64,000 nt of DNA from NCBI GenBank assembly GCA_030599585.1, contig JAUVNS010000002.1:345282-409281 (forward strand), written 5' to 3'. Numbering within the stretch: position 1 is the stretch's first letter; each line of letters starts with the position of its first letter. The notes under the pieces are model-generated. The model was not told the origin of the DNA. It searched no databases and was given only the letters and a program-made list of their open reading frames with translations. The position numbers and the translations under genes are program-made. Source of the DNA: Promethearchaeota archaeon. Its GTDB lineage: Archaea > Asgardarchaeota > Lokiarchaeia > Sigyniarchaeales > SOKP01. Below, in pieces: positions 10,771 to 50,900 of the stretch.

Positions 10771-10852
10771 TGTTCAGTCGATATTGAGGAACAGCATACG
10801 AATGTTCCCGAAACTGTTTAAGGAAATAAATTAGTAATAAGAGAAAGGATAG

Positions 10853-10953
10853 GGCTCGGTACGGGAATCGAACCCGTCTCTAGGGATTCACAGTCCCCAA
10901 TACTATCCATTTTACGGAGCTAGCTTTCTAAACCCCTCTATACAAACCGAGCC
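10853..10953 (-). tRNA. tRNA-His(GUG) with encoded G-1 and a 28-nt D-loop intron (about 10910-10937)
   Basis: Acceptor GCTCGGT/ACCGAGC with G-1:C73; anticodon arm GGGGA-CTGTGAA-TCCCT; T-arm ACGGG-TTCGATT-CCCGT; extra 28 nt in the D-loop; no encoded CCA. Confidence 0.92.
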
Positions 10954-11056: not shown

Positions 11057-11917
11057 TCATATAATAGTAATAGAATCTTTTATTAAAGCGTCTGGAATTG
11101 ATATTAAAGGGTTTCCTTTTAATTGTAATTGATTTAATAATTTTAACTCGACGATAGAGCTTGGTAATTCTTTTAACTTATTCCCCCCCAATTTCAGAGT
11201 ACCCAACGATTTCATCTTTCCAATTGTGGTGGGTAATTGTTCCAAACAATTATTTGATAAGCAAAAGTAGCTCAAGTTTTTGAGATTTCCAACCGACTCA
11301 GGTATTGATTTCAACCGATTGTTTCTTAGTGTTGTTTCAGTTAAACCCTCGAGCCTGCCGAAACCTTCAGGCAGTTTTTCCAACTTATTGTTCTTCAAGT
11401 AAAAGGTTTTTAGAGATTTTAGTTCCCCTATTGCCTCAGGTAGCGCTTTAAGACGATTACTGGACAAAGCTAAATGGTGAAGATTTATTAAACATCCAAC
11501 TGAACTCGGTATTGAAACGATGTTGTTTTCGGCCAAATTTAGGCTATGCAGTGAGGTGACTTTTGTTAGAGGTTCAGGAAAAACTCTTAACCTGTTACCG
11601 GCTATACTGAGAACTTCTAAGAATTTCAGTTTTTCGATTGCAATGGGGATAATTCCGATTGCATTTCTATCTAAATCTAATTCTCTTAACTTTGAAAACT
11701 TCCAAACAACAAGAGGAATTGAGGATAACCGACATGATACCAAACTAAGCTCCTTGATATTCCCGCCTTCAATCTCGAGGAAGATGCGACTCGAATTACC
11801 GTCTCGCTTTTTTTCGAAATTATTGCTTATCAAATTGTCTAATTCCAAAAGGTCATAGTATTCTTGCGAACTTAACCGCTCTTTACCCTCAAAATCTAAA
11901 TCTCTTATGTTTTTCAT
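11057..11917 (-). CDS. Leucine-rich repeat protein (about 9 23-aa repeats), candidate immunity protein
   Basis: Repeated LxxLxLxxNxLxxLPxxIGx; no signal peptide; starts 78 bp after the giant ORF's stop. Confidence 0.9.
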   Translation of the reverse strand: MKNIRDLDFEGKERLSSQEYYDLLELDNLISNNFEKKRDGNSSRIFLEIEGGNIKELSLVSCRLSSIPLVVWKFSKLRELDLDRNAIGIIPIAIEKLKFLEVLSIAGNRLRVFPEPLTKVTSLHSLNLAENNIVSIPSSVGCLINLHHLALSSNRLKALPEAIGELKSLKTFYLKNNKLEKLPEGFGRLEGLTETTLRNNRLKSIPESVGNLKNLSYFCLSNNCLEQLPTTIGKMKSLGTLKLGGNKLKELPSSIVELKLLNQLQLKGNPLISIPDALIKDSITII

Positions 11918-11995
11918 AGGTAAATAAAAAAAAGTAATTTATGATAATTTAATTATAGCTGTGCCAAAATTTAATAATTTGCGATTTTGGTGTTT

Positions 11996-14900
11996 TCACA
12001 TCAAACCTCGACTTTCTAATTTTTGTCTTATGTCTTTTATGATGGAAGTGACCCAGTCTTCTGTAATCCATTTCTTATCGATCATCTGTTGAATAGTGTA
12101 AGTCTCCCCTCCATGGTTCATCTTAAGAAAATCTACCTTTGAAGTATCGACTACCCACTTCCCGTTCTCAAACACATATCTATTAGGGCCTTTATAGGAA
12201 TATGCTATTCTGTCGTTATTTTCCCATTCGTTGACAAATTCTATAAGGCGTTCTATATAGAGATCTTGAGCGGATTGTTCCCAGTACGATGGCGGCCTTG
12301 CAGCTTGGAAATCATTGCGCATCATACGCATTCGAGAATAATAATCTAGATTTTTCCTCGGTTCCAAGCTTGTGAATTTGTAATGCAAATCCCCCATCAT
12401 AATAAGATCCATTACGTCGTTTACCGTTTTATCGAAGTCAATGTGATGTCTAAATTTATTATTTTCGACATCATAGTTTTGGATTCCCTCTCCACGCCGC
12501 CCAGCTGGTAATAAACCTCCTTGATAAAGGAGTAATTCAACCCAATGCTTAGCTATAGTTGCTACTTTATAAAAATCGTCATGATAATCAACTTTTGTAG
12601 AATCAAGCAATTTTGGTTCATATCTAAGGTAAATATCATGAACCCCAGGATAATTTCTTTGATTGTCGGCATAAAAATCTCTAAAAGTTTTTTGCATAAG
12701 TATAGCTTGACCTTTCCTAATAGATTTGCTCAAGTCTGATACGAAATCTTCGAGGTTGTTAACTACACCCATATTATTTATATTCTTAACTTGTCCAGAA
12801 AGATATGAACTAGTTGTAGACGCTACCGTTCCTAATCCAATTCTATTATTGATCTCTGATACATCTAAGTATATCGATCCATGATATATATCAGATAGAT
12901 GCCAACTAGCAAGCAACATTACTTTTTGAAGAGGTTTGACTTCTTCATTAACAAGAAAACTGTTAGAAGCGCAGTATCTATTAATGGCTAATAAGGCTTC
13001 TTGAACTGATCTAGCTACTAACTTAGATTCTATACTATCTGAAATCCTAGATTCGCCCAAATTCTCTAACATAAATTCAGCAGACGATTTCCTGTATAAA
13101 CCGTAAATCATTCTGAGTAAATGTTCGGTTTTGACTACGCGCCCTAGTACTTGGGATCTTGAAAAAAGTCCGAAAAATTCGTTTAACCTGTTAATCGAAG
13201 GCCCGTGACCGTCCCTATTGGCAGGATCATGCTGGATTGCAAGCCTAAGATCCCCTAATAGTTTATCTACGTCAGGATTTTGATTCTGTAAGCCAATTTG
13301 TCTTCTATAATTCATTAATAATTCTTTAAATGCTTTCTTTGTTTCCTCTGTAAATTGTGGATCTTGATCTACACTAAATATCCATTTGTAAAGCTGGTTA
13401 TCAGTCCATAAGATGTTTACTCCGTTCTCTAAAGACAAGCGGGTAGTTCTAAATGCATCTCGACGTTGATTCAATGCTATAGCAAGCGGTCGCTCCTCAG
13501 TAATGCTTAAAATGTTTTTAATATCATTGAGTAAGATGTTCGTAGGATGATCTTCCCAATTTTCGTAACTATGGAAGTAATCAATAGTAACAGCCACTTC
13601 CGCTACGTAAATTTTACTGTCGATGTTATGATGGTTTTCTTCTAGCCAATCTGCAAGATTAGTAACGCGGTCTACAGGAATGGAAATGAGTTGAAAATCA
13701 TCGGAAATTATATACATCTTATAATTGCCGCTCACACCGAAATAAGTCAAAATCTCGTTTAATTTGTCTAAAGTGCTCATATCTGCTCTAAAAGCGTTCT
13801 GAACTAAAGAACGAGAGGCTTGGCTCTTTTTATGAATTAACACAAAATTGGGATCGTAGAATTCTAATCCGAACATATCTAAGAATCGCAAATTTGTAAC
13901 CCCTTCTTTAGCAAGTGCGTCTTTAATGATTTGAATTGTCTCTTTTTCTGCTTTTTGGACTCCAATCTTATTGTAATTTTTCTGGATTTGTCTAAATAGT
14001 TCTTTATATCCTCTAAATCTCTCTTCTTTTAATAGATACTTCTCGATCCATTCGTTAAAATATGGATCAAAGGCAAGTGTGTTAAACTTGTTAGCGAGAT
14101 TTTCTTTTTGAGTTCTACTATCGGGATTAATCTGACGAAGAGCAGTAACCGATGGAATGTTTTCTTTATTGGAGCCTTCTTGCGGTGCCTTAAATAGCTC
14201 GTGAAGGGCTTGAGGATCAACTTCCGAGGGTTGCTTTGTTTCTTGTCCAAAGTTTATGGTGTCAATATCTCCGACAATACTTATTAGGTTCTTTTTTCTT
14301 CTGTTGTGTCGCCACGACTTGAGATTAGCCATGGAAAGAGGCGACGCTTTTATTGAGCTGCCGACCATTTTCTTCAGACCGGAGAGCGCAGCGAAACTGA
14401 AGGTGCCGAAAAAGACGGCTGGAAGCGTCATAAACAACCCTTTAAGGAAGTTGCTTTCTAACAGCTTGCCCAACGAGCCCTTATTTTCTGCTGCTTCTTG
14501 CATTGCTTTCTGTTTTTGTTCGAAATCGGAGTTTATTTGCTGTTGAATCTCTGTCATTGACTGACCCGAAACGAGACCTTGTATAAGAGTAATTACGCTT
14601 TTTGAACTTATTGGAGCGCCTAGAACTAACTGGCCCATGGCTCCTTTTACTTCTCTGGCGGAGGTTGATAACGAAGACAACCAGAATCCTAAGTCGTCAG
14701 AGCCGCCTAATATACTTACGACGTTTTCGATTAGTGCTTCTCTAAATCCGTCTTGAATTATTTCTTCGAATACTTCTTGTATTGCACCTTTAACCGCACC
14801 TGTAAGACCTCCAAGAAGCGATTTTGATTGCTTTGCAATAAGCATCGCAACGCCTTTAGCTCCTGCCTCCGACGCTAATTTGCCTACGGCTGCTTGAGCC

Positions 14901-17900
14901 GCCCAAGAACCAAAATACGCTAAGGGAGCGCTTATTAACGTAGACCAGAACGTTAGAGTCTCCGTATAGGAAATCTCTGAAATCATATTAGCACTAATTT
15001 CTGCGAATGTATACTGACTGAAATAGTCCATAATGGTGTAAGAAGTAGCTTGAGCTAAAGCAAGTCGACTGGTTTCGTCGGTGGTGTCGGGAATAAATCT
15101 TTCGAATTCGATTCGAATTTTGTAGAATATAGTCTCATCGACCAATTTGCTAGCCCACGATTGAGCCAAGAAGTCTTCGAATCCTGAATATTTTTCCGAA
15201 ACGAGCGCTTCTATAGACTTAGTAAAGTATAGATTACCTCCATCGACCGTGTAGTCAGAATCGTTAACTAGTATGTCTTGAGCAAAATAATCGTTTAGGT
15301 GAACTTCTTCTTGAACAACGTCGATAAACACGGACGTAATGTTGTATTCGAAACCGTTATCGTTAAGAGGAACTTTCGCTCCATACAGAGCCGATTCTAC
15401 GTCGTCCATGGCATAAGCGTTAATCCCAGAAGTCTTATCGTAATCCTTACATCGAACGGTCACAGTAAGTTTTCCTAGCGCAGGTTGGATTTGGTCGAAT
15501 CGAGCTTGGCTTAGAACCACGGGTCGATACAAAATCGATAGCGGTAAGATAGTTTCTTGGATGGTGCTATTGATAAATTCGTAGCTCGGTGCTCCGTCTA
15601 TGCAATTAGGCTTTATAGCATCGAACGATCCTCCTGATTTTTCCATGACGATGGTCTCAAGCGCGCCTAAGGTGTTGAACGAGTGTAAGTTGTAATCGTT
15701 AAACAAGAATTCGGTGTTGTGGTAAGTGTAAAATGGTTTGGTGTTGTAATAAGGGAGCTCGCTTGTCATAAGTAAATAATCTAAATTGATGTCATCGTAA
15801 TCGAGGGCGGTGTAAGAATCAGGATTGGAACCTCCCATGTCCCAAATGTTTTCCCATAATAAATCTAAAAATCCTCCAAAAGAGTTCCATATTCGAAGTG
15901 GATTTGGAGGACTTACTAACAACTGCCCGGTATAAGTAGTCCCAGAATCCTTGCCACTCACGGTAGCGTAATATCCTCCTGGATGAGCTAATAGCGCTGC
16001 TGCCATCGTGTCTTGAAGAACTCTATCAAAAAGATTTTTTTCGTTGAGCGAAACCGGTTCTTGTGGTCCGCTTGAACTTGGGTAAAATGTGTCGGCCCGT
16101 TCTATGGATTGTGCCATGTGAAGTTTTCGATCGATGTTAAATTTTGTCATTAAAGTATATATAACAAGGTAAGTTAGCGTTCCCGCAGCTCGACCCGCAG
16201 CCTCTCCCGCTGCAATAGCTGCAAGAGTTCCTACGCCTAATGTCGCCGCTATACCAGCAGCAGTGACCATCGACGCAACTATAGCTGCTACTACCGCGCT
16301 CGCAATAGCCGCAGTTGTTGTCATAAAGACTTGTTCTATAATATCACCTACTAATTGTTCTCTGTAAGTCTCCCACGCTCTTGCGTAAGATTTGTGTCTA
16401 ATTTCGTAAAATAACTCGGTAAATTTAGGGTTTTTTTGGCTCGTTTCAGAAGTTTTGTAAATTTCGAAGATTTGATCTTTTGGTTTGTATTCTTTCCAGA
16501 ATTTATCGTCTTCGTTTAAAATATCGAATAACAAATCGTTATTTTTTAAATTGTCGAAGTTATAAATCCAATCAGAACCAAACATTTCAGTCTTTCTTCC
16601 GAGGTTGCTAAAATCGGTAATTGTGTTTTCTACTTGATCTAACTTTTCGTAGGGAGCAAAATCGTGTATGCCGTCGTAGTTCATTCCTATCGATATTACG
16701 TCGTATTTAGGAATTACTAATCTGCTTACCGTGTATAAGTTGCCAACTATGTACACTGTCTCGTAATAACCGTTAAGATCTGAATCTATGAAAAAGTAGC
16801 TACCTGAAGTTTTAGCAGATCCGTCCAAAAACGCGTCTTTATCAGAAGTGTAATAAACTTGACCGTCTGCCGGAGTGACCATAGCTCCAGTCACCTCAAA
16901 TTCAACCCAACCGTCGTTCTCTACGCTAGATTTAGATATTTTACCGAAATCGTTGTATAACGAATACCTATTTGGGATGCGAAGAATAATAGTCTTTTCG
17001 AAATAATTTGTGGAATAAGAAATTTCTCCATCTTCGTCAAATACTTGAAGAGAGTCGTATTTTATTGGAACGTTGTCTGAACTCCAAGTTGGACCCGTCC
17101 AAGTGATGTTTGCGGGACTCGCGTAAGGAAGTTCAGGATCGAAAATTATTTGTGATTGGGCGTTAGTGTCGATGTTAGTGACCGAGTGTTGATTGGAAAC
17201 ATCTTCAAAGAACCCTTCGACGCTTTCAACTTCGTTGTTTTTAAAGTCGTCCTTGTAAACCCTTTGTTCTTCAACCTCTCCTTCGTTATAATCAATAAAG
17301 GTTAAAGTCGAATATTCAACGGTGTCTACGTACGAAGTAGTGACATTTTCAGTAAATTTTCTATAAGTTGTGCTCAAAGTAGGAGCGTTCATGATGGCCC
17401 CAAGGTTTGCCGTGCTAAAATCGTTAGAATCGAGGTGTTCTTTCGTAAGAAATTCGTTAAATACAAAATCGTCTTTTGATCCAAACAAGGAAGCGGCGCT
17501 TTTCATTATATATTCGCCTAAAAAGATTAATACGTTCTGAAGTTTTGCAGCGAGTATTGTTTCTTTAAATTCCGTTACCTCGTAATATATGCTAACTTCG
17601 GTAGTCTCAAAGTTGGTAGATTCGTCTACCGTTCCGTCTCGGTCTTCGTCTACTTGCACGCTGTAGAAATTACTTTTAACGTGTTCTTCCTTGTTTATTT
17701 GCCTCTGCGTCGATTTCTGAGCCCAATAGTCAACATCTGGAAGCATCATCTTAGAAAGCGTGTAAAGCATTAACGGTATTATCAAGACTGATAATAATAG
17801 TTTGGCCATGTTAGGATCGTAATTGGCGAAAGTTTGATCGTCTACATCGAACCAATCTGTTCTTAGTTTTTCTTCTAAGTTTTTAGAGGCTTTTATCTCT

Positions 17901-20900
17901 CGATTCTCGAAATCTTGAATGACCGTATACCAATAAATCTCGCCTGAACCTTCTGGATCGTCTATACCGTATTTAATTATATCTGGAACGCCATCTCCAT
18001 CAATGTCGATCGTTTGCTTGTAATCGGATTCTCCGTCCATGTCAATGTCTGCTACATATATTATGGAGGTATCGTCGTAATATACTTCGAAATTATCGAA
18101 TTTTTCAGATGTGTAACCAATAAATTGACTTTCAGAACTAATGTCGGGGTTTCGAGAGAAACTAATTGATTCAAAAGAAGTGCTTTCGCTGGTAATAGTA
18201 TCAGATCCTTCAGCAAACAACGGAACGCCCGATTCAGATCTGAAATTGTAATCAATATCTACCGAACTGTAAAAAGTCTCGGTCTGATCTGATAAGTAGG
18301 TTTGGTTAAAATTATCGAGTAAAAATATTTCGGTATAGGTAGAAATTGGGGCGTACGAATAATTTACTATTGCTGTAATTTGATCAAAAACGTCCAGAAG
18401 ACCGTCATCCGAGTTCAGATCAATAATTGTTAAGTTGTTAGTTGTTTCGTCAAAATTTAGGCTAAAATTGACGTTATTTGTCAACATTTCCGTGTCAAAG
18501 GTAGGCGTTAATCCGATCACTTGATACAAACTAAGGTTAACAAAGTCGTTTTCGAAAGTAAGGTTGCCAAGGTCAAAAGTATGGGTGTATTCAGAAATTT
18601 CGGTGTATACTGAAAAAGTCTCGTAATAATATTGGACTACTCGATATTCCGATTCTTCTTTAAAAGAGTAAGCGATATTTTCGTAGGAGTGCGATGTGCT
18701 AAACTCTGAAAGCCAATCGTAATGCTCAGGTTTTAATAAGTAGTTGCAATCGTATACCGCCCTAATCGAGTCGAGATCGATGTTTTGCTCGTCAATTCGA
18801 ATAGATTCGGTCCAAGACGTGTTTGTAGCGTATTCAAAGAATAGGGTTGAATTAGCCTCGATTATTAAAGGTTCTTCAAATTCCATACCAAAATATTCTG
18901 GGTATTGGTTAAACGATGGGTTCCAGGTAAATGTATTGTTTGAAGGTTCAAAGTGTAATTGGTGATCGTTTCCGGTAATTCCTGCCGAATAATAATTGCC
19001 TTCCTTGTCGTATATGGTCAAATAATCTAACCAAGTACTATCAAGGTAAAACATTGGCAATTTATCGAGAACGAGTTGATAGGAATCGTCTTCAGGATCG
19101 GAATCGGATGTAAACATTTCGTGCTCTGAATATTGCCACACCCGACTATCTACGCTACCAAACGCGTCTGATGCCTCGTACGATTGTTCTAAAAGCACAA
19201 TTTCGCTTATAGTCAACTCGTATGTAGGGTTAGGCACAGAAATAACTATATTACTGAAGTCTAACTCGTCAACTCCTTCTGAACTAAATAAGGAAGTTAA
19301 GTTAAGCTCTATCTTAACCGCCTTCACTCTTCCGTTAAATTCGGTATCAAATGGAGTAATTTCTAATGGAACTTGGTAATAATAATCGGCGGTAAATTCG
19401 GAATAAGAACCGGTAGAATTGGCGTTAATTAACAACAGCTCCGCTTTAGGAAGGTCTGGGTGCGAATCGTAGTTATATCCCTTGCTTTCGAAGTAAGCTT
19501 TACCGATACCTACGGCTATTCCTCTCTTTACTGGAGAGCTATATTTTAGGACTATCACTTGATCGTCCTTAAAGCTACCCCTTTCGCTGGTATTGTTGTT
19601 GAAATAAATCGTCGGAACGTGTAAAGTGTAAATATCGTTTTCAAATGTATAAGTTATGTTATTTGAGAAAGAAAGAAGTTCCAACATGTCGTTAAATACG
19701 TAAGCTAGATGAGTCCCGTTAACCATAAGGTCACTTTCTAACGCGATGTGCATGTATTCGATTTCATCTTCCATAAAGGATACGAGTTCGCTATCCCATT
19801 CAACAGTTTGTATTCTGATAATACCTTTAAGGTTGTCTTGAGAGTATTTTTCGTCGCTCCTAAATTCTGGAGTAAATCTTATCGTTTCTAAGGTGTTTGT
19901 GCTAGTAGGCAAATCAACTTTTAGGGTGTAATCTACCATAATTAATTCTTCAGCGGTGATAACTTTTGTTAATTGCGTCATTAAGCCTGAATTATCGAAA
20001 AGTTCGATCGTGACGTATTCTAAACTTTCTATGTTTTTTATATTGGTGTCTAAATACAAAACAAGGTAATCTCCGTTGTGTAGTCCTGTAAGCATATCTT
20101 GATCGTAATTCTGCAATTCTTGAGAAACGTTGAATTCTAATTGATCTCCTTCTTTAAGATAGGCAGCAACTTGAGACGCTTGACAAACTATGTTCTGCAA
20201 GGTAGATTTGTTCTCGTTCATGAAGTATGGAGCGTCTAAGTTAGGTATCACGCTAAAATTTTGTGCGTTTATAATGTTCCAACTTGTTACGTTTAATGTT
20301 GATGTAATTCCTTCCGTGGGATCGTACGAGAATTGGTAACTATTTAGTTCTTTATCGATATTATTTGATATAAACGATACGAAGAATTCTTTGTTCGCCC
20401 GAATTGAAGATACCAAACTGTTTTCATCGTTTTTGATGGTTATTTTTCTAGAGTCAACATCTACTGAATAGTGAATAGAATCTAAGAATATCATCTTGCC
20501 TCTTGCGTTGAAATAAAACACGCTTATCGCCTCCTCTCCTTCAGCTTCGATAATATCGACGTAATTATCTAATTCTGGGCTCATCATATCGTATACATAT
20601 CCTGAAACGGAACTATCAAAAAATTCAGAGCTTATCTCGAATCTCTCTTCGTAGTAATCTCTGCTATTTAGCCGATAACTTAAGTATAAGTTGTATATGT
20701 TGTCGATCGAAAGGCTGTATTCGAAAGGTGTAATTATGGAACCTCCGCTTAATTTTCGGTATTTTTCCCGATAAGTGTTTAACGAGTCTAAAGTCGTCTC
20801 AAATAGGTTTGTCCACGGATAAGTAACCATTATGAAGTGTTTGCGATCGATTAACCCTGGTTGAAGTTTATATTTGTATTTTAACTCAACATTTGTGTTA

Positions 20901-35900: not shown

Positions 35901-38900
35901 CCTACGGCTTCCATCCATCTATATTCGAGGTCATCGTATCCAGAAATGTCCCAATCTGCGGATCCTACGTACCCAGGACCCCATTCCCAACCCCCGGTTG
36001 TTGTAGTTGCTATCGAGGTAATCCTCGATGGGTTAATGTATTCGTCTATTCCCGTAGTAGCGGCGTCGTAAAAACTATTATTGTTTTCGTATAACCTTGT
36101 GAAAGGATTAGGGGCGTAGATATTGGTACCATCTATTCCAGTTACCGCGGTAAATTCTGGTATCTTGGAAACGCCGTTTGCAATAAAACCAGTTTCGTTA
36201 AATAAATAATCGCCTAAGTTGTCGGAACTATCGATAGAATAAGTAGGGTTAAAATTGTAAGTAATTATGTTATTTTGCTGCATATCGTCGTTAAAACTGT
36301 AAATAACATCAATGTCGGCGGAAATATGGGCGAACGAATTTTCAGGAGTAATTACGCTATCTTGAAGGTCTAAATCGAGAGTTGCAACGTGAGTTTCTTT
36401 CTCCTTGTAGCTTAGAAGCAAAGATTTGTATTTTTCGAAATCTTGTTGGTCAACAATCCTTTTGTAATATTGCGATTCGAGATATTTAACGATTATTCCA
36501 TCCGTCTCTGAAGCAAAACGCGATTCAATTCTTGGTTTCGTTGTTGGTTCGGTATCGATAATGTTAAGTAGATCGGTTGGATTGTCGTTGATAAACCCAC
36601 TCCATTTTTGTAGAGCACTATCGTAATAAATCGAAACTACGTTGTCGAAACCAGTTGGCGCAAGGTCGCCGCTTGCTATAGTAAGAGACACGTCGTCGTT
36701 TACCGCCACAGTAACTTCTCCCGACCCCGGACCCACTTTCTCGAAAGTGAAAGCAGCTCGATACAGGTCGTGTTCGACGTTCCATTTCTTTAAAGTGATT
36801 AAGCACAATTTATCTATGTGAACGGTAAAAGCACTGGCAGTTTCAATGTTAATTCTAAACAAGAAAGGATTAATTCCACTTGTATAGTTGAATTCGTACA
36901 ATTGACTTTCTGGAATAGTAAAAACAATATCGCCGTCTTTAATGGCGTGAGTAATAGTTTCGTATTGTTTCGTGTTCCAATTTTTTAATCTAAACACTGC
37001 TCCTTCCAACGAAGCGCCGGTAGCGAAACCCGTTAAGCGAATTTCTACATCAGTTACTTCTTCCATATCGGTTTCGTCAAGTTCGAATTCGAAATTAATA
37101 GTGTAAGCGTTATTAATATCAGAACTAACGTTGTAAAATTGACCGTCTTTAGCGTGAGCGTAACTAGCGGATGATGGAGGAATAACCTTACTACCGTCTA
37201 TTATATAGGGTTTATTTATTCCCTCAGTAAATTCGTGTTCGGACACTTTTGTGTCGATAATGCTCGCCCCTTCCATTACAGTAATAAAATTTGCCATAAA
37301 ATATTGGCCGTCAGTTAAGTTTCCTGAAAACTCTAACTGATCGAATTGTAAAGTCTCTGACGGTTCTAAAGTTAAAATTTGAGTGCTAAAATCGGTATTT
37401 CCTTGAGGAACCACGTTAAACGAGTGTTGAGCTTGTCCGTCGCTGTATAGCGTTAAGTTAATCTCGTTTCCCGTTTTTGCTTTAAATTCGATTATTATTT
37501 GATCGTTAGGGGTAACCGTTATATTGTTGGCGTAAGAATTACTTTTCAAGCTAAGGCTTTCGGGATCGATGTTATCCGTTTGCATGTATAACATTCCACC
37601 CTCTTGGTATTTCTTAGTTGCTTGATATTTAACAAATGAATCGTAAAAATTAACATATCCGCTTGGAGACACTAAGTCAAAATATTGACCTAGAGAGTCT
37701 AGATTTCCCAACTCAAAAAGTATTTGGGTGGGACCAGAAATAGTGCCAATTGGTTTTAGAGAAACGAATTCGATAGGTGAAGGTCTATTGCTGTTCCAAG
37801 TGATCGTCTCTTCGTCAAAACTTCCGGTTGTATAGACTTGCACGTTTGGACTAAGGTAGGCGTTTTCTGAGGTTACTTCGTAATAGCTCTTGTCGTCTGG
37901 TCCTAAACCTAGGTATTCGAAAGGTTCAATTTCAATATAAGTCTCGTATTGTTCAGGCACGTTAAAACCTTCTATCCAATCTACTTTAAGGTTGTGGCTA
38001 ACAAAACTAGCAGTTAACACTTTAATTTCGATAGTGTCCGATCTTTCTACGCGTACTGATCCCGATAGAGAATTTTCGCTACCAGAAGCTATTATAACGC
38101 CGTTATATTCTATAGCTAAATATTCTATGTCTTCGTCGGTAGATATATCGAAATAAATATCAACAAGATTGCCGTAAGGGAAGATTGGGGTGCTCCCTAA
38201 CCTCTGATAACTAACTTCAACTTCGTCTAGCGGTCCATTAGGTATAGAATGGGTGATGTGATATTGACCGTTGTCTGTCTTCGTATCCCAGACATCGCCT
38301 CCATTTGCATAACCCTTATTTATAACACAAGACATGGCACACGTTCCGTAAGAATCTAACCAATTATAAACCGAAAGGTCGTCCCCGTTAAAATTTGTGT
38401 TCGGATAAAGCGAGCGAACTACTGTTTCTTGGATTGGGTTTTTAGAGATATAAATAGTATCTTGAGCAGTTCCGAACAAGTCCCAAGGAGTGGTTTGGAA
38501 GTTATCTCTAAACTTGATGGTTTTAGGTGATTCTATAAGGTTAAACCCGCTATAACCGTAAAGTTCAACTCCGTCTTGAGTAAAATCGATTTTATCGCTA
38601 ATGTGCTCCCCTCCTATGGCGTTTGATTCGAAATCGTCGTAATTTAAATAATCAGTACTCGTTAATGCAAAAGTGTTGAAGTTTGAAACGCATAAAAATG
38701 GTTTTGTACCTGAGTCTTGTGAAGATTCTTTTTCCGTTAAAATCCTAACTTTAAATTCGTGCAAATCGTTTAAAAAGTCGTCGTAAAAATCAGCTTGAGT
38801 AAAGGTCGGAACGGTCGTATACGCTGGAAAATCTGAGGTGGTAGTAAAAAAAGCTTCAGGATCGATAATTAAATTGTTCAACTGGAACTTATTTGCGTTG

Positions 38901-41900
38901 TAATTGGAATCGTAAAAGAGCATTTTGTAATCTTCGTTGGTAAAAAGGCTGTTAACTTTGTGTCCGGTATCGGCGTTATCTAAAAAACTTCCGCCGTTGG
39001 TAACAGAACTATCAAAGACTATGTTTCCGGAACCGTCTATTGTATTTGGGAATACATCACCATATCCAATCGTGTTAATCTGAGATAGGCTTAACGTACC
39101 CCATTTAGGCCTGAACCTATCAGCGTCACTATAGGGCGTCTCAGGATCCCAGCCCCAAAAATCAAGATCTAAACTACTTGCAGAATATTTATCATTAACG
39201 TCTAATAAAGCCATTGGAATTGATTCCCACCTGGCTTGATCGTAGTTCCACAATTGTATTGACAACGGATATTCTTTAACAAATCCAGTTGAAGAAATAG
39301 ACGCGTCGAACGATATTTGAATGGAGTCCAAGTCGTCTTTGCTGACAACTGGAAGTTTATACGAATATTCAAAACCAAACTCTCCACTAACACCTTCCAT
39401 AAAAGTGGTTGTATATTGAGTCCAATTTAACAATACCGACTCGAGTTCTTCTAATGAAGCTCCTTGAGTAGCAGGATTGCTCTCGGTTACTTTCTCTAGT
39501 TTGAAGTAGTATAACTTGGCGTGAAACGCGGGCGACCCTTCTAACCCCGATATAAACCTTATTGAGTTAACATTTTCTATAAATTCACGATCAATATCAA
39601 TTACTTCTCCTTGCCTAAAGGTTTGACTATTAATTTTTAAAACTCCTTCTTCTCCACCAGTGCCAAAAGTTTCAATGTGACAGCTTAAGTAAAAATCGCC
39701 GTTGTATTCACCCTCTATGTTGAATATTGCACTAATAAAGTCGCAACTTTCTGCTTGTACCCAGCCAGAATTCATCTGATAATAAGTTAAATCGTCTTTT
39801 TCAGTGTTTGAAAGTAATCCTGAACCAGATCCGGAAGGATAAGTTACGCTTTGTAGATAAGTAGGATCGATCTCTTGGGGGAGTATTCCAGAATCATAAA
39901 TGAGGGAAATTGAGGAGTTATAAGTCTCTAAATCGGTTAATTCGTTTCTTACGAACACCTTTTGTTCGCCATCAAAATTATAAAGTCCGTCTGAATTTAA
40001 CCTGTCTTGAATATCGGGGTAATACATCTGCGAAAAGTTGTAATTGTCCGAGATGTACGGATTTGAAGCCCATACGCCGTCAACGTAATTATTTTCGAAA
40101 TTACCTCCAAATTCAGATTCGCTGTCTTTACCGTTTAAGTTTTCAGATAAAATTCCAGAATCGTAGGAGTCGCCGTAATATATTAAAGAATTTTCTAGTT
40201 CAGGCATCGAGGTATATTCAGAACCCCAGTTATTTCCCGTCCATCCATTTTTAATAGTAGGATAAATTACCGTATTTCCTAACCCAGAAATAACCGGAGT
40301 ATTTTGATATGTCATACCGTTTGGTAATAAATTCCAATTTGCGTAAGGATCGGAATACCGCGTTGTAGGATTCAACCATAAAAGCGGAAGAGCTGAATCA
40401 GTAAAGAAAGTTCCGAACGCAGATGTTTCTTGAGCGCTCGAAGTGCCTTTATACGATTTAAAGGACGGATCGACAGCAGTTGTCTCTTCAGCTTTGAAAG
40501 ATTCGAACGCGTAAGCAATCTTAAGGAATGCTAAGTTAGACCAAACAGAAGCTAGGTCTACTTGTACCTGAGTTTTTGAATAGCGATATTTACTGGAACT
40601 TAGTTCGTACCAGTTGTTATCTCCTGCCAACTTATACGAAATTTTCGAAATCGACTTTACGGGATAATTATTAAAAAGTATTGTAGGGTAATAGTCGGGT
40701 TCTAAATTCGCTTTAGAAATCACTTCGTGAACGTAGACTACGGGGCTTGTTATCGAAGTCGCGCTTTCTAAATAGGTAATTTTTGTTTGATATAACCCCG
40801 TTTTAGAAGCAATTACTAATTTTTTAGCGTTGTTTTCTTGAATGGTCAAGAGATCTAGTATTTCGAACTTAGTTTCGTCAAATCCCGACAACTCAAAAGG
40901 CGTCCAAATTTCTGTGCCTAAATTTCTCCTTAAAGCTATAACAGCGTCCATCTTACCGATAGATAATCGCTCAACCCCTAAAATTACAGTATCTTGACCG
41001 TTTATGGTTTCGTATTCGATGACGTCGATTTTTCCCAAAATAGATTCGGCAACTATGGATTCGAACTCAAAAATAGCGTCAAACTCGAGTAATTGCGAAT
41101 AGTAGGCACCGTCCATAAGTCCGCCAACCAACACTGCCTTTCTATCGCTAGCAGAGAAGCGGTTTACTATCTTAATTGAAGTAGGTTCAAAATTAAGCGG
41201 GCTATCGATGTTTTTGACTAAAATAAGGTTCAAATTTGAATCAAACGCGTATTTCCAGAACGAAAATTCTGATTGTTGGTCTTGTTGAATTAATACCATG
41301 TTTGTATCAGAAGAAGTAGAATCGTATTCGAGATCGAAAGACAAATAGTTGTATCCTGATAAACTCGTAACGTTTTCTTTTAGGTTCCAAGTACCCGAAT
41401 CTAAATATATTACGTCAATTTGGTTTGGAGAAATCCTAATGATTTCGAACTTGTTGTCGTCGTTTACGTCGAATAAAGTAAAAACTTGATCGGTAATTGA
41501 TGGGATAGTATTTTCGCTACTTACTGCGGTATCTAACTCCCAGCCGGTTATATTGTTAAAGTTAAAGACCGATACGTCTAAGTTACCTCCCAATTCACCT
41601 ATAACGATCGGTTGCCAATCTACTGAACTGTCAGAAAAGACTCCCCACGAACCCCATAGGTCAGAAACTGTTCCTTTGTTAATTTTTAGAGGTAAATACT
41701 CGTAATTGTTGTCGTAAATCGAATCCACGAAAGTTTTATCTTTGCTAATGTCCCAAGTAATGGTATAATCGGCGGTATCCCCAGCAGAAATTATGGTCGA
41801 GGAGTTATAGGCAATTGGTATCCATTCTCGCTTGTTAGGATTGTACCATTCGGCAATTACGTCCCATAAGGTTTCAGATGAGCCTTGGAAGTAGTTTTCG

Positions 41901-44900
41901 ATGGTTCCTTCTATCGTTTGAAGGTTTGAAGTAAGCGAAGAATTGTATTCAAACACGTGTCCAAATAACACATCTGTGAGCAATAAAACTTCCGTGTAGT
42001 CGTAAAGGTTAACGTCTTCTGATTGGGTAATGTAATTTCCAGCGCGATCAAACGCATATATTTTAAGCGAGTAGTTTTCTGGAAGCATTGGATCTAAAGC
42101 GTCTCCGTCCCAATAAAAATTCCACAAGTTTTCTTCTCCGCTAAAGTAAGCCCTTCCAACGAATGTATTGTTTGGACCATAGATCATGATTCTTTGGATG
42201 TCGGAGAGTCCCGATATTAAGGGTAGTATAGAAGACACATTTACTTGGATGGTACTATCGGAATAATTATCGGAGCCAAATATAATTACTCCCTCATCAG
42301 CCGAATTAACTCCTAGTTGCCAATTAAAGAGCGATTGGGAGGGTGGAGAATTCTCGATAGAGTTATCGTAAATACATTTATATTTGTGAGTTTGTAACAT
42401 GTTTCCTAGCCCATCTTCTGCTTCAAACCACGCTAAAAATTGTTGTTCTTGCGATAGAGAGAGGTGGTCAGTTATGTCAAAATAAGATTTTCCAGGGGAG
42501 AGGAGTTCCCATTTTTTGGAAGTGTTGTTAAAGGTTAGAGTGATTTTATTGTCAACTAATTCGTAAAATTGGGCGGTTATGTTGTTTGTTAAAGAAGGGG
42601 ATAACAAATACCTGTATTGTTCGTCGATTTTTAGGGTTATTGAGGTTCCGTCTAAAAGCACAGTAAACTTATCAACTAAATAATCTCCAATTTTTAAGTT
42701 TTGGATGCTTTTAATGTTAGACACAACCGTATTTATTGGAGTTCCATATCCAGTAATTTTATAATGAAAAGTTTCGTAATTTAAACTGCCTAAAATAGAT
42801 ATGTTGTACCAACTAAGTGGGTTGGTGTAGTAGAAGGAAATATTTTTTACTCCTAATTGATTGGCAATGGTAGGATCAATTGGGCTCCAATCAAAACCGT
42901 CAAATAATTCGTCAAAAGCAGTTATTTCGATATATTTTTGGTCGCTAAAATAAATGTTTTCGGTTAAAGTATTGTTGTATATATTTTCGTTTTCGGCAAA
43001 AATTTGCTCTTCGATCGATTCTATTTGGGTAAATTGAGAGTCTAAATAAACATTAATTATTGTGTAGGTTCCAACATTTCCTGCGTTATCGGTAGCAATA
43101 AGGCTTAAATTATAGTATCCGTTATCTAAACCCTCTGAAGCTATTAGAATAGTCCAGATATTATTTTTATAAAATATTGTATAGGCTAAATTATAGGCTA
43201 TAACGCCCGAAGTTACGTGTAAAGCTTCAACGATCAACGAGAATCCAGAAATTTCGGTGATAGTTGCGTTAATTTCAAATAAATCTGTCCAATAAGAAGT
43301 TAAAGTGTTGACATTGGAAATAACAGGATCTGTTTTGTCAACGGTAATTAAAAAGGTATAGATAGTTTGCAACCCTTGAGTATCGTTTAAAGTAAAATCA
43401 ACATATTTTGTGCCTTCAGATAGGTTAGTATCGTTGAAAGTAAAAGTATAAAGACTCTCTGCTACAGACCAGTAGCCATCGATTGAGGAATTAAGAGAAA
43501 AATCTGATACTCCAGATAGATCGTGTACTACAAACGAGAGAACGCTCGATTCGGGATCTATTGAGCAATTATTCGCGAATTGGCTGTAAACTTGTGGACC
43601 TTGATAGTCTATTGTGATTGAATTATCGATGACAAATTGAGAAATTGCTCCTGTTATGCCATAAAATTCTCCAATAATTGTGTAATTATCTTGAGGTAGT
43701 TGCGAAAAATCATAACTTCCGATAAATTGATCGGAACTGTGGAACATAGTTGAGACGCCAATATCTAAGAATACTGGGTTAAAACTATCGTAAGAGCCGT
43801 CAAGATCATACGGTGTGAGCAAAGTGATTAAAATCGTGCCGCTTACGTGGTCAACGAAATAAGAGTGGTCGTATGAAGTGCCGTTTATCCTTACATCTTC
43901 GATCGAACATAAATCTTCTCCAATCGACAAACTAGGGATATCTACTGTGAACTTATTGTCCGTTATTACGATATCTGAGCTTGGAGTAGAATAAAACACA
44001 GTAATTCTAACATCATCGATATTAGCCTCCGTTGTAACTGAGCCTGAAGAATTTACGAAGATGTCTACTCCAAAAGTACTGCTATTGATATCTGCAACAG
44101 ACCACGAAGCGTTCCAAAGGTCAGTTGATCCTCCATAAGAATCGTAGAAATCGTTATCGTTAGTATCCCAATATCCACCTTGAGCCCTCGTAAGCCCCAC
44201 TTGTCCAGAAGCTTTTCTAAGGAAAATTTCTCCATCCCAAATAGAATCGGTTATCGTACTAAACCGGTCTATATCTACTTTAATTCCAAGGATAGTCGCT
44301 TCGGTAGGTATTGAAAATCCAAAATCTGTTAATCTAAGCCAATCCGAACTAGTCTCGGAGGATGTATCAAAAGAAACGAAAGTCTCGTCGTTGTCTTGAC
44401 CGATAACTTTGGTCGGATTGATCCACTCTTCTTGGCTTTGTGGAGGTTCGGTGTAATGTATTCTAATCTCCAGAAAATCTATTCTCGCATCGACTGTACT
44501 TAATCCCGTAGAGTTCACAAATAAATCAATCCCAAAATCGGGACTGTTAATCTGAGCGTAATTCCAGAAGGCGCCCCATAGTTCGGAACTTCCCCCATAA
44601 GTGTCGAAATTATCGTTTGTAGTATCCCACCATTGATCGTTTGCTAAGTTAACTCCAACCCGACCCGATGAATTTCTAAGGAAGAACTCAACTTCTTTTA
44701 TAGCGTTGGCTAACGAAGAATCCCTGTCTATACGAATTTCTATACCGGTTATCGTTGCATCGCTCGATAGAGTAAAATCGAAATCGGTTAAGCGGAGCCA
44801 ATCTGATGTAATCTCTGAGCTTGAAGTAAAAGAAGATATAGCGTTATTGTTGTCTTGGGTAGTAGTATTGCTTGGATCTTGCCAAAGTCGTCCCGAAAAC

Positions 44901-47900
44901 GATTCGGTATAATTAACGATTATGTAGAGATGATCAATAAAGGCAGCAGCAGAGATGTTGCTATCTACTACAATATCTACTCCAAAGCCGGGGCTTTTTA
45001 TTTCAGCAACTGTCCACGAAGTACCCCAGAGATTGTTAGAAGCACCATAGGTAGTGTAATAATTAGTATCTGTTGTGCTCCAAGGAGTAGCATAAGCTTT
45101 ATTGTCTCCTTTTAGCACCGTTGAATTTCGAAGCCGTACTAAATAATCGGTAATAGAATTAGTTACATTGGAATATTTGTCTATTTTAACCGTGATACCT
45201 ATAATTTCTGCTCTATCAGGAATAGCGCTGAAATTGAAATTTGTAAATCGCAACACATCAGATTCTGCGTTAGCACCTACTCCCGTAGATTGAAGCAATA
45301 CCGCATCTATATTCCACGTATCCAGTATTGAATCAGAAGAAATATCAGAACCTGCAAATCTTAAAGTGAATGTGTCACTTGAAAGTGATACTGAAATATT
45401 ATTCCACGAGGAAGCGTTTAAATCAGAAGCAATGGTAAACCAGTCAGAGCCCGTCCAATAGGCCAAACTAATATTCTCGGAACCCGAAAAAGTGCCCGTC
45501 TTGATGCATAATTTTTCTACGTCCGCAAAATCCGTTACTCCTGTGAACTGTACTTCTAAATCCATCTGATAATCCGAAGTACTAGGTGCTGGATTAATCG
45601 CGATTTGTCCGTACGAGGCACCATCAGCGAGCGCGAAGGCTACACTTACTATCCCAGTACTTCCAGCAGTTGCTAACGTCTTATTGCCCCACGAACCACC
45701 TACCCCAACATCACCAGATCCTGTTTCTATATATTCTTGTTCAGACCAACCCGTACCAGTAACATCAAAGGGATCGAGATCTGCGCCGTCCGAACTAAGC
45801 ACGTAAAGACACAGTGCGTCGTTTGTATCCGTGATTACAGCAGGAATATCAACGCTCCCTGCCGATCTAACAGAACCAGTTGTGGGGGTTCCACTAATTG
45901 GATCGGATTCATCAGCGCCTTTTATTAACAAGCAATACCCCCATAAATCATCAGAATCGATAGAATCAATGGTCACGGTTGGATTTTCGTTATTAGCAAT
46001 CTTGTAAAAAGCTGCAACATAAGCGTCAGGAGTTTTTCCGCCAACATTGAAAATAGTTGTCCACCCAGACTCGTCAGAAAATCCTTGACCATTATCGTCT
46101 GAATCGCTTCCTGCAAGAATTAGCAATAAATCACCATTTACGGTGGCACTAGGGATATCTAAAGTAAGCGTCGTACCAGTGTTAGTATTATTAGTGTATT
46201 CTGCAATAAAAGGAGCTCCGGATGTTGCACCTGCTACCAATTCCTCAGAGAGCAAATCGTAAGTATCATCTGTTGCTTTCATACTCTCAAAATTACTATG
46301 CCAACCAGAAGACGAACTGTCCATATCAGACACGTTGTTATTAACATATTCTTCGATTTTAACGTCGTTAACTGTAAGGTTAGAGTACGCGTAAGAATTC
46401 GTTTGAGATTGAGCGTAGGCAGTGTCGAACCAATTAAATCCTCCTACTTCTATCGAGTTTATTGCTTGCGTAGAAGATATTGTTCCGTCATCAACAGAAC
46501 CAAGGTTTCTATCTATGTTTGCTGTAGCACCAGCGGTCATCCAACTTGAAAATGTTGCACCACCTCCAGCCAACCTATCGATGTTTAAGGCGATTTGAGG
46601 CGAATTAAAAATCGAACTTAGCTGGGCTTCAGTTAAATTTAGCGTTAATAAATAATCGTAATTTGCGGTTAAATCTAGCGTGTTGATTAAATCACCGCGA
46701 GAATTATATATTTTTACTACAGGAGGATTGTTGTTAACCACGAAGGGAATGGAGTGTGAATTATTGTACGCGTTGTTATCGTTAACGAAGCTCATATTTA
46801 GGTTGTTGACAGATTTGGTAATGTTTACGATTAAATCCGAGATTTCAATTATATTGTCAAAAACGCGAGTTATTACCGTAATAACGATTTCTTCGTCAGC
46901 AATTCGATTGTTTCCTTGGTATAATACAACTATTACGTCTATAAAGGAAAAATCGGTGCCAGAAATTGAGTATTTAGATGAGTCAAGTTTAATGTCAATA
47001 TCTAAACCCCCGTCAGTAAAATAGATGTGATCTCCTTCCGATACTACGTTAGAAAGTTGGAAGGTTTCGTATCCAGTGCTTATCCAAACCCACGTAATAT
47101 CGTTATCTACGGGAAGAACTTTTAGGTGCAGATCGATCATACCGTTTTGATCTAACCCGTAAATTGAACCGCTCTCTAACCCTTCAATTACGAAATTTTC
47201 GTGGTTGTTATAATCTTTTACAATCCAATAATTTCCTTGGTATAATGTAATGGAGTTAGACAAATCGTCGTACCCAATGAACCTTATTGTGATATTATCG
47301 TCTCTTAAGTTAATAATGTCAAAATTTATTTCTGCTAAAGAGTCTACTGCTTCGAAATCTCCATATTTTATCCATTCTGCCGTGGTCGGAGTATCGTACT
47401 GATATTCAAGGGTTACTTTATCAAAATCGGTATCGGTCGAGTTAATAGCCAAGGTAATTACGTTATCTTCTACTATATCGTAAGCCGATCCTAAAACTAA
47501 GGAATATTCCGACCCTGTAATGAGTTCTAAATCAGGACCTTTTATGTCTAAAATAGTTGGATTTGCAGAATAATTATACAAGTAAGAGAGTTCTCCGAAG
47601 CTATAAGACAAGTTAGCTTGAAAAACGAAATTTACGTCGTATTTGTCTGGAGATAGGCCTTTATTCGAAATCCAGTCTGAAAGCTCAGACAGTTCGATTA
47701 ACCAATAATTAGAATACAAATCAGAATAACTTACTTCTTTCAAAAAGTCGATATCATTAGAATAATTTACGAAGAGGTTTAAAGAAGAAAAGTGCCATTC
47801 AAATCCATCGATCGGAACGACTCCAAGTTGAGAATTGTGATTTATCTTTCCGTTTTTATCCAAATAGGTGAAATTTATTAGATCGTGGAAGTGTTCGATC

Positions 47901-50900
47901 CCAAAATAGGTGTTATAATATTCGTAAACCGTATTGTTGTCGATATCGGTCGCTTTACTAATAAAATACCAATTGTCGGAATCTGGGAGGTCTCTCGAAT
48001 CCAATAAATAAGAGTAATAAGACGAATCGTAGCTAAAACTAGCGAGGAAATCCCAATCGATTTCTGATTGAGTTTGGAAGTCGGGAAGCGTTCTCGAGAG
48101 ATAAAATTCCATCGATTCTACTTCGTTACTGGTAGCGTTTACCTCAAAATTGAGGTATCCGTCAATTTTTTCTCCTGCGGAAGTAATTATCGTCCAACCG
48201 CCTTGTCCGTTTTCTTTTGCAACTCCGGGAGAAATCGACACGATGCGCTTCCCCGTGTGAGCTTCGATCTGGGCGTCAGTAAGGCTAGCGTTAAACACCG
48301 ATATCTCGTCGATAATTCCTGTAAAACAAGAATAATTTGCAATTTCGCCTCCAACGGTCAAATTACCTCCGGCTTGTAGGTAACCACCGCCGTTCCACGG
48401 TTCATTAATTCCACCAAGCGCGTCTCTACACCAAGTTTCTCCAATTAACACGTCAATATCGCTCTTATTGTAACGAAGAGCTATGTAAGTCCATTGATTG
48501 AGTGGGATTGCTCCACTAAAACCGTACGTTCCCATCGATTCGAAGTTAGTTGTGTTTAAATAAAGTTGTAAAAAACCACTCTCGTTGACTCCAATTTCTA
48601 TGTTTCCTTCCTTTGCAAAAAATACATTTTTAACTCCGTTATCGCTTAGGTTTGAAGTAAAAACCGTGGGATACAACCAACCCGCAACTACAAAAACATC
48701 GTTAGAATCGCCTAAAGTATTGTCTAGGACGTCACCAAATTGCACATAATCAAAATCTTTATATTCGGGATCTCCAGAACCTTGTTGCGATTCTGGAGTG
48801 GTCGAATTAAATTTAATCTTCATTCCATCTAGATCAGTTTGGTTCAAAGTTAAACTTGACCACGTGTAAGTGTTCCATTCTGGGGTTGAAGCCATACTTA
48901 ATGGTTTTTCTCCTAACCAACCTCCGCAGTAGACATCTACCGTCGAATCTATGGTAGTTTCGTTTCCAAACACCTTTATTGAAATCTCAGTTACGTTTCC
49001 ATTCTGAACGCTAAAAGAACTCATGTTTAACTCGTCAACGATGTAAGGTCCTTGAAACGTGCTAGAGGTAAATATATACCCGCTACTCGTGTCTGGAGGA
49101 GGTACTTCCTCTACTGATTCGTTGAGTAAATTAAAATGATCGTCCGAGGTTGAAGCGTTCCATTGAGCAATAACGTCCTCGTTTGGAAGAACGATACTGT
49201 TGTTTATTATTGTACTCGATCCTGAATATGTGTAATAGACTATCATCTCAATGTGGTCGATATAGGCGCTCCGGGCGGTTGATGTGTCTTTGTTATCGAC
49301 TTGAAATTGAACTCCGAACGTATCACTATTTACAATTGAAGGGGTTAAACTCGCGCTCCAGTCGTCTTCCATGCCACCATAGCCCACATACTGGTCACTT
49401 GTAGGCCAATACGACACCAAATCTGGTTTACCGATCCCTTGTATAACCTCTCCAAGTATTAAATCTACCGTTCTATCCATAATTGTATTCGTTGCTGACG
49501 CGTGTCTATCGATTCTTACGTGAATACCGGCAATATCTGCAGTGGTAGGAATATCGAACCCGAAGTTGGAAACTCGTAATATATCGCTTTTTTTCCGCTT
49601 TGCAATAAGATTAGCGAGTGCATACGCGTCATTCGGCGTCTTTGCGTTATCGGCAGGAATCCAATCGGTACCACCTACTTGCATGTTTGCCGCGGTTCCA
49701 GGGTCATAATACCCTTCAGAACCATCACTACCACCAACACCTTCGTATTCGTAGGACACGTTAGCGAAGGTAGCGTAAATGGTAGAACCAATTGTCTCGA
49801 TTTGTTCGTATTCAAGAGTTCCTACTCCGTCAAATTCTAACCCATATGATTCGCCTTGAGTGCTTGTCCAACTTACATCGCCTTCTAAGGTTCCTTCCAA
49901 GTTATGAATCTCGTCAAATGTGCTTATTCCTAAATTTTCGTTGAACAACGCCCAGAAATCTAAAGAGCCTGGGGGAGTATAACTGCTAGTGTGAAGTTGT
50001 AATAAATCGTATATTGAAAAAGGCCAATCGGGGTATAAATCTTCGTTGTTATCGAGAAAATATCTTCCGTGGCTAGAATCAAATTCGAGTCCTGCGTATT
50101 CTACGTAATCCATCTGATTGTAAAAACCATCGCCTAAATACGATAACTTAACGAGCATATTTTGTTCGATAGAGCCGTATACTTTGTGAGTATAATAGAA
50201 ACTACCGTCAGAACGAGTTTTAACTGTAGTAATTTTTTCAAACCGATCGTTTGATTCGATGAATAACTCTAAATCGTCAACGGGGTAAGGTTCGTGGATA
50301 CTATTAGCAACTTTTCCATCGAATACGATTGTCCACGAGCCATCGTCTGGATGTTCAAAGGTGTATACAGCACCGTAATACTTGGAATCTAATTCTTCTT
50401 CAAAAATTTTGTTTGATATTACCGTCAGATCGTCTTTATTTATCTCAATCTGATACGCTTCAGGAATAGAATTTTTGAACGAAAAACCAGACAAAACCGA
50501 ATAACTCACCTTAGCTTCGTAAGAACCTGGTTGTAAATTTAAATCGTTAAGGTTAATTTCTGCTATCAATTCAGAATCGTCTAAAGGTCCGTTTAGATAA
50601 GGGGACAGAACCGAATACGATTTTTTAGCGTAAAATCCATCAATAGTCGGAACGTCTATGGGTACTAAATCAACTCGAATTCGAGAAGCTTGTCCGAACT
50701 TGGGAGAAATTCTTGTTTTTATCACGAATTTGTCGTTGATTGTAAGTTCGTCTAACGATTCTAAACTTGGATGGTATTCCAAGCTATCAAAATCGATCGA
50801 ACTCGTCGATATTCTCTGTTCTTGAGATACGGACGCAAACTCGTAAAATGGATTGTCCACGGACCACATGGATTGTATTCCGAACGTTATTGGAAAAATG

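Follow-up and report, generated by a model that had tools for sequence, protein, structure and literature searches.

The LRR protein of 286 aa encoded on the minus strand at 11057..11917 of the window (the whole 64,000-nucleotide stretch of Lokiarchaeial DNA analysed here) is probably the cognate cytoplasmic inhibitor, or immunity protein, of an HNH-like module at the tip of the giant protein encoded next to it. The initial annotation had proposed a cognate antitoxin, and that proposal is strengthened by conserved linkage of the two partners, by an exchangeable tail on the giant, and by pairs that occur without any giant, all read from genome comparisons. Module and LRR gene would together make up a cassette of two genes that are passed on, duplicated and relocated jointly, whether at the end of a giant, at the end of a shorter protein or on their own. 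Inside the producer, the horseshoe of the LRR would bind the module and so protect the cell's own DNA from it, and it would likewise bind modules arriving from sister cells. What this reading adds by inference is that the module is a toxic nuclease, that the LRR physically binds and inhibits it, and that the module is delivered to other cells. Below, G000 is the genome of the window, other G numbers are surveyed Asgard genomes, and C numbers are contigs.

The giant gene and its LRR neighbour

The giant ORF (11996..53539, minus strand) encodes 13,847 aa, and searches of Pfam and NCBIfam found no significant domain in it. Its N-terminal region is basic (22% K+R) and is followed by a hydrophobic, TM-like cluster at aa ~650-890 and then by an acidic body of ~11,000 aa in which K+R is ~5% and the density of N-x-S/T sequons is normal to raised. 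After the body come three hydrophobic segments and then a tail. The last of these segments is TM-like (14375..14449, minus strand; aa 13031-13055), and homology to paralogues stops just beyond it.

A spacer of 78 bp, rich in A+T (11918..11995, minus strand), separates the stop codon of the giant from the start of the LRR gene. The two genes share strand and reading frame, with a TGA and a TAA between them. Coordinates and hydropathy thus agree with the earlier description of a signal-less LRR gene 78 bp downstream of the giant on the same strand. The LRR gene was also said to be the last gene before the tRNA, and no ORF of at least 60 aa was found between it and the next gene, a tRNA-His (GTG) at 10852..10920 on the minus strand. 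A search for att-like repeats that might connect the tRNA with the region beyond the giant returned none.

The 286-aa protein, our candidate immunity or inhibitor protein, is a clear member of the LRR superfamily as judged by its sequence, and exceeded the Pfam gathering thresholds. LRR_8 matched at E 1.6e-31 with 108 bits (cut-off 27), LRR_14 with 104 bits and LRR_4 with 88 bits, and LRR_1 was matched as well; NCBIfam matches were at repeat level only. The first ~50 residues are hydrophilic and are followed by ten repeats, each of 23 residues, of the form LxxLxLxxNxLxxLPxxIGxLxx. A hydropathy check, which is not a dedicated predictor, found neither a signal peptide nor a TM-like segment: the maximum KD19 value within the first 40 residues was -0.29, and charged residues make up 12 of the first 30. 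Five LRR orthologues share the start MKNIRE/DL, which confirms the start codon. We also tested whether variation among five close orthologues is concentrated on the concave face of the LRR, and this was not seen (2.1 residue types per column on the concave face, 2.3 on the convex face).

The exchangeable tail and its C-terminal module

Beyond the last membrane segment the giant continues for 739 aa (11996..14215, minus strand) in a basic tail without N-x-S/T sequons. Three giants of ~14,000 aa are encoded in G000. The window giant aligns with the giant of C23 to residue ~13,119 and with that of C47 to residue ~13,099, and past the last TM segment the tails of the three giants are unrelated to one another. 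Since paralogue homology stops after the last membrane segment, the tail is exchangeable. Base composition changes near this same point. Tail and LRR gene are alike (GC ~0.36, range 0.355-0.373; CpG o/e ~1.0), and the body of the giant has GC 0.38-0.41 and CpG o/e 1.4-1.5 (computed over window positions 11996-17995). The absence of sequons was significant when computed for a tail of ~790 aa (0 observed vs. 6.3 expected, P ~0.002), and K+R amounts to 12.8%. These sequence properties suggest that the tail lies in the cytoplasm of the producer cell.

With the 739-aa tail as query we searched 161 genomes of the class and a set of 1.84 billion representative proteins, and in the latter the entire query drew only 47 matches. 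The tail proved to be modular: residues ~4-220 are common to many giants, and residues ~545-739 form a rare module. With its stop codon, this C-terminal module covers 11996..12583 on the minus strand, and it is this stretch that the LRR gene accompanies. An AF2 model of the last 200 residues of the giant folded confidently on its own (pLDDT 88.6, pTM 0.83). The conserved columns of the module alignment include an HNH-like core motif (12362..12451, minus strand) that reads RHH-x3-K-x9-(D/N)LILLG-x-LH-x6-E, and downstream of it LDYY..MR..R..F ... P..W is conserved as well. Within the close clade, R70, H71, H72, K77, L85, I86, G89, L91, H92 and E99 are invariant. At the motif the AF2 model has two strands followed by a helix.

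An exhaustive structural comparison with VIA-align placed HNH-type nucleases, or complexes containing one, at 12 of the best 15 matches (Z 3.5-5.4). These included Cap5 (5.4), IscB (4.7), McrA (4.1) and the retron HNH (4.1), together with the GVE2 HNH, ScoMcrA, the Cas9 HNH and PtuB. The individual Z values are low, but the enrichment for HNH folds is consistent. Sequence-level searches gave no support. Neither Pfam, NCBIfam nor PADLOC assigned a family to the tail or the module, and a profile of the module alignment had no match among PDB sequences at E<=10. Foldseek with the module model retrieved nothing from the PDB at E<=0.001, and the ESM Atlas gave no usable match for the module. In hhalign comparisons of the module core with eight or nine genuine Lokiarchaeial HNH domains the probability was 0.15, which is not significant, and the best local alignment puts RHHI.F.K..D.LILLG on DHIIPFSKGG..NIQLLC with the motif in register. 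From the motif and the weak structural matches, the module is a probable HNH-like nuclease; the assignment is not established, because the sequence-level tests fail.

Linkage of modules, LRR genes and other partners

Linkage between module and LRR gene was surveyed in 161 class-level and 400 phylum-level (Asgard) genomes. Across the 400 Asgard genomes the module is confined to one Lokiarchaeial family. Every intact copy in these genomes has an adjoining LRR gene within ~100 bp (11/11), and a pattern scan of metagenomes added five copies, each with a co-directional LRR gene (5/5), two of which probably duplicate G125. The survey of genes downstream of homologous giants that had been suggested as a check thus revealed a tight and conserved linkage. 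The only module matches without an LRR gene were a 59-aa fragment and a truncated fragment of 136 aa. The pairs span three genera and two gene orientations. They are co-directional in the genus of the window (G000, G120, two copies in G125, and G114), with the LRR gene 70-90 bp downstream and, in G120, G125 and G114, 63-66% identical to the window LRR; over all close copies of the module the adjoining LRR orthologues have 62-68% identity. In two other genera they are convergent (five pairs in G156, and G055), with LRRs 30-40% identical to that of the window.

LRRs matching the window LRR at E<=1e-45 were found in 4 of 135 genomes of the family, and these four are exactly the module carriers among the 42 genomes of the genus. 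Modules and LRRs fall into matching sets of three clades, and their pairwise identities correlate (Pearson r 0.85), a value that is confounded by phylogeny. Within G156 the similarity rankings of module and LRR are not congruent, in a mirror-tree style comparison that is noisy because the sequences are truncated.

The initial annotation had cautioned that LRRs are common in Lokiarchaeia and that the adjacency could be chance. LRR proteins do recur in Asgard archaea, and a close paralogue of the window LRR on contig C9 does not lie beside a module. Against an accidental neighbour stand the pairing of all 16 intact modules, the exact co-occurrence of module and LRR subfamily across the genomes of the genus, and the scarcity of LRR genes in G000, a genome for which the caution does not hold. 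Only 13 of its 3,568 ORFs of at least 150 aa are rich in LRRs. The genome has 26 ORFs of at least 1,500 aa, and 3 of the 13 LRR ORFs lie directly at the 3' end of such an ORF, with none at a 5' end (Poisson P ~1e-4). On these linkage statistics chance adjacency of an ordinary Lokiarchaeial LRR gene was rejected, and we give it next to no credence.

The pair also occurs away from giants of full length. In G125:C143 it stands behind a 1,583-aa ORF equivalent to the C-terminal ~1,570 residues of the window giant. The module is a stand-alone ORF in unrelated surroundings in G125:C94 (252 aa) and G055 (178 aa). For the two pairs of G125 the identities are 57% and 71%. Proteins of 650-680 aa carry the module at their end in G156, a genome in which at least five divergent pairs coexist, with identities of 30-57% between modules and 39-67% between LRRs. 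The locus G114:C246 (L055:11771-13123) is syntenic with G125:C143 (L056:13938-19631); its module is reduced to a 140-aa stump without the HH motif, and its 293-aa LRR ORF is intact. Retention of an immunity gene after loss of the toxin would yield this pattern. Overall the module has the scattered distribution of an accessory element (4 of 42 genomes in the genus).

To see which gene comes next, we extended eleven loci whose resemblance to the tail is limited to its juxtamembrane part. In G036, G130 and two loci of G042 the gene after the giant is another LRR, confirmed by Pfam in 3 of 4 cases. In G092, G120, G125, G072 and G059 it belongs to a family of small CxxC proteins (Zn-ribbon) of 115-190 aa, with an N-terminal KKxRTIxIKxPxLxKIR, two C-terminal CxxC pairs and no Pfam match. 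Genes of this family lie at L046:3071-3806, L047:3421-3846, L048:7228-7794, L049:296-691, L043:3476-3883, L032:1988-2851 and L034:1-337. They form a tandem pair in G120, and those of L032 and L034 stand beside two weak module-like matches. The family is likely a second family of partner or immunity genes. Tails of different types are thus accompanied by partner genes of their own, the arrangement known from polymorphic toxin systems. An irregularity concerns two tails with 44% identity over their full length: the partner is an LRR in G036 but a Zn-ribbon protein in G125, where the contig stops ~340 bp past the Zn-ribbon gene.

LRR genes were also found beside other large proteins of G000. A 2,483-aa ORF on C32 is of Tc/Rhs type, with matches to SpvB (E 1e-87), TcdB_mid-N, TcdB_mid-C, FG-GAP and RHS, and a convergent LRR gene of 339 aa ends 4 bp past its stop codon. 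This pair of tip and LRR recurs in G056:C240 (L070), again convergent and with a similar LRR. At the C23 giant, too, an LRR gene lies 78 bp beyond the end and is convergent with it. It is conceivable, though rather doubtful, that LRRs are a general guard or antidote family for the exchangeable tips of Lokiarchaeial giants and Tc/Rhs-type proteins, and that the LRR holds the tail in the producer cytoplasm until an event at the surface sets it free.

Several further features were observed around these genes. A 2,643-aa ORF precedes the Tc/Rhs-type gene at its locus (G000:C32:170399-178874, L067). Tandem ORFs of ~260 aa in G022:C840 (L071, L073, L075) and G036:C21 (L074, L076) match the segment upstream of the C32 tip, and the arrays look like orphan tip cassettes with small membrane proteins in between. 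Ahead of the repeats, an N-terminal domain of the type (K/E)EF(K/Q)IN(E/D/K)F(L/I)xLxLE is encoded by several LRR genes in the vicinity of giants (G000:C23:51081-52154 and 57063-57863, G000:C47:22613-24208, and L030:2840-3424); the C47 copy has an N-terminal hydrophobic anchor in addition.

The role of the LRR partner

Conserved adjacency makes module and LRR partners, and it does not tell blocking from assisting. The tail is apparently cytoplasmic in the producer cell, so that its delivery to another cell is hard to picture, and for this reason two readings other than inhibition were retained. In one of them the LRR is a non-inhibitory partner (an adaptor, scaffold or regulator) of a tail that stays in the producer cytoplasm, and it might, for example, link what happens at the giant on the surface to an activity on DNA within the same cell. 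Such a role would suit the sequon-free tail, its K+R content well above that of the body, and an LRR without signal peptide whose 23-residue repeats belong to a class of general protein-protein scaffolds. An intact LRR beside a truncated module, as in G114, fits protection better than it fits a cofactor, and the joint exchange of tail and partner, the divergent pairs of G156 and the LRR at a Tc/Rhs tip are signatures of conflict systems. We therefore consider a non-inhibitory partner unlikely, although it is the alternative to which we give most weight.

A different kind of role would be played in an anti-virus pair, in which the LRR senses a viral protein and frees or activates the HNH effector (abortive infection), and the copies on giants are secondary fusions. 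The stand-alone pairs of G125:C94, G055 and G156 and the patchy, accessory occurrence of the module are compatible with this, and its best structural neighbours include the defence effectors CBASS Cap5, retron HNH and Septu PtuB. A structural likeness among HNH domains is uninformative on biological role, however, PADLOC matched neither of the two proteins (0/2), and no NTPase or other signalling domain was found in them. The module mostly tips very large membrane proteins whose tails have been exchanged, which is the layout of a toxin. We regard the anti-virus pair as improbable, and inhibition by a cognate immunity protein as the best account of the locus. Against that account count the weak nuclease assignment, the substitutions that are not concentrated on the concave face, the incongruent rankings within G156, the different partners of similar tails in G036 and G125, the C9 paralogue and the apparently cytoplasmic tail. 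As a proxy for docking, an AF2 model of a read-through fusion (module, natural linker of 27 residues and LRR as a single chain) reached pTM 0.56, with confidence in the HNH core lower than in the model of the module alone, and was uninformative on binding.

The immunity reading had initially been argued from two precedents, immunity genes of bacterial toxin loci and the eukaryotic ribonuclease inhibitor. The first role is indeed on record for LRR proteins, since Zhang et al. 2012 (PMC3482391) list Imm-LRR among the immunity classes of polymorphic toxin systems in bacteria. The genomic features of that class are present in the window: adjacency, conserved linkage to one tip family, and no export signal as judged by hydropathy only. 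As with Imm-LRR, an LRR-only protein is encoded beside the exchangeable C-terminal domain of a very large surface protein, orphan and multiple copies occur, and the partner changes with the tip. The present system differs in its host, an Asgard archaeon, and in its carrier, a membrane-anchored protein of ~14,000 aa with no known trafficking domain in place of the T5SS or another bacterial export route. Its tip family is absent from Pfam, and the LRR gene is convergent in two genera.

The ribonuclease inhibitor (RNH1) is an LRR protein that neutralises cytotoxic RNases, paralogues of RNase A (PMC5435912). The proposed situation in Lokiarchaeia is comparable, in that a cytosolic LRR would block a nuclease by binding. 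The repeats of RI are 28-29 residues long and Cys-rich, its gene is unlinked to those of its RNases, and the target proposed here is HNH-like, not RNase A-like. Membership in the RI class was rejected, as all ten repeats of the window LRR have 23 residues and do not alternate between 28 and 29. Because the repeat class differs, the likeness to ribonuclease inhibitor is functional only.

The toxin-immunity cassettes of nuclease colicins (such as the HNH DNase pair colicin E9-Im9), CdiA-CT and Rhs-CT offer a third comparison. They share with the window locus an HNH-type DNase tip (putative here) on a large protein, a tightly linked gene for a cognate inhibitor (proposed here), and the occurrence of orphan cassettes of tip plus immunity gene. 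Convergent immunity genes are known for pore-forming colicins. Immunity proteins of the Im9 type are small four-helix proteins, unlike the LRR found here, and the module is missed by sequence profiles and has none of the Cys/Zn features that many HNH domains show.

Among archaea, polymorphic toxin systems have been predicted but not characterised experimentally (Makarova et al. 2019, cited in PMC8416519). As far as they are described there, they resemble the window locus in having a long first gene, a variable C-terminal tip of DNase or RNase type and a neighbouring immunity gene. Our literature search found no paper joining Asgard, LRR, immunity protein and toxin. The system differs from those described in its archaeal host, its carrier of ~14,000 aa, its non-Pfam tip, the convergent orientation of some pairs, and the pairing of LRRs with Tc/Rhs-type proteins.

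Many Asgard LRR proteins have no known role, and the pair gives one subfamily a concrete candidate function, as nuclease inhibitor or immunity protein. If the more doubtful reading of LRRs as a general guard family were true, part of the Asgard expansion of LRR proteins would serve conflict between cells, and the archaeal relatives of eukaryotes would have an LRR paired with a nuclease as its inhibitor, in the manner of ribonuclease inhibitor or an NLR-type guard. The pair also suggests that antagonism or recognition between cells involves the giant surface proteins of Lokiarchaeia. The stand-alone pairs are small and clonable, and if binding were confirmed, they would provide an archaeal counterpart of LRR-based nuclease inhibition, which is known in animals and proposed for bacteria.

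One relative of the window LRR lies outside the linkage described above. The closest paralogue (G000:C9:321372-324333, L065) has 320 aa and is 56% identical to it; its gene follows that of an NAD-dependent DNA ligase (LigA) at a distance of 55 bp, and the surroundings contain no module. This may be an orphan immunity gene or one with another role altogether.
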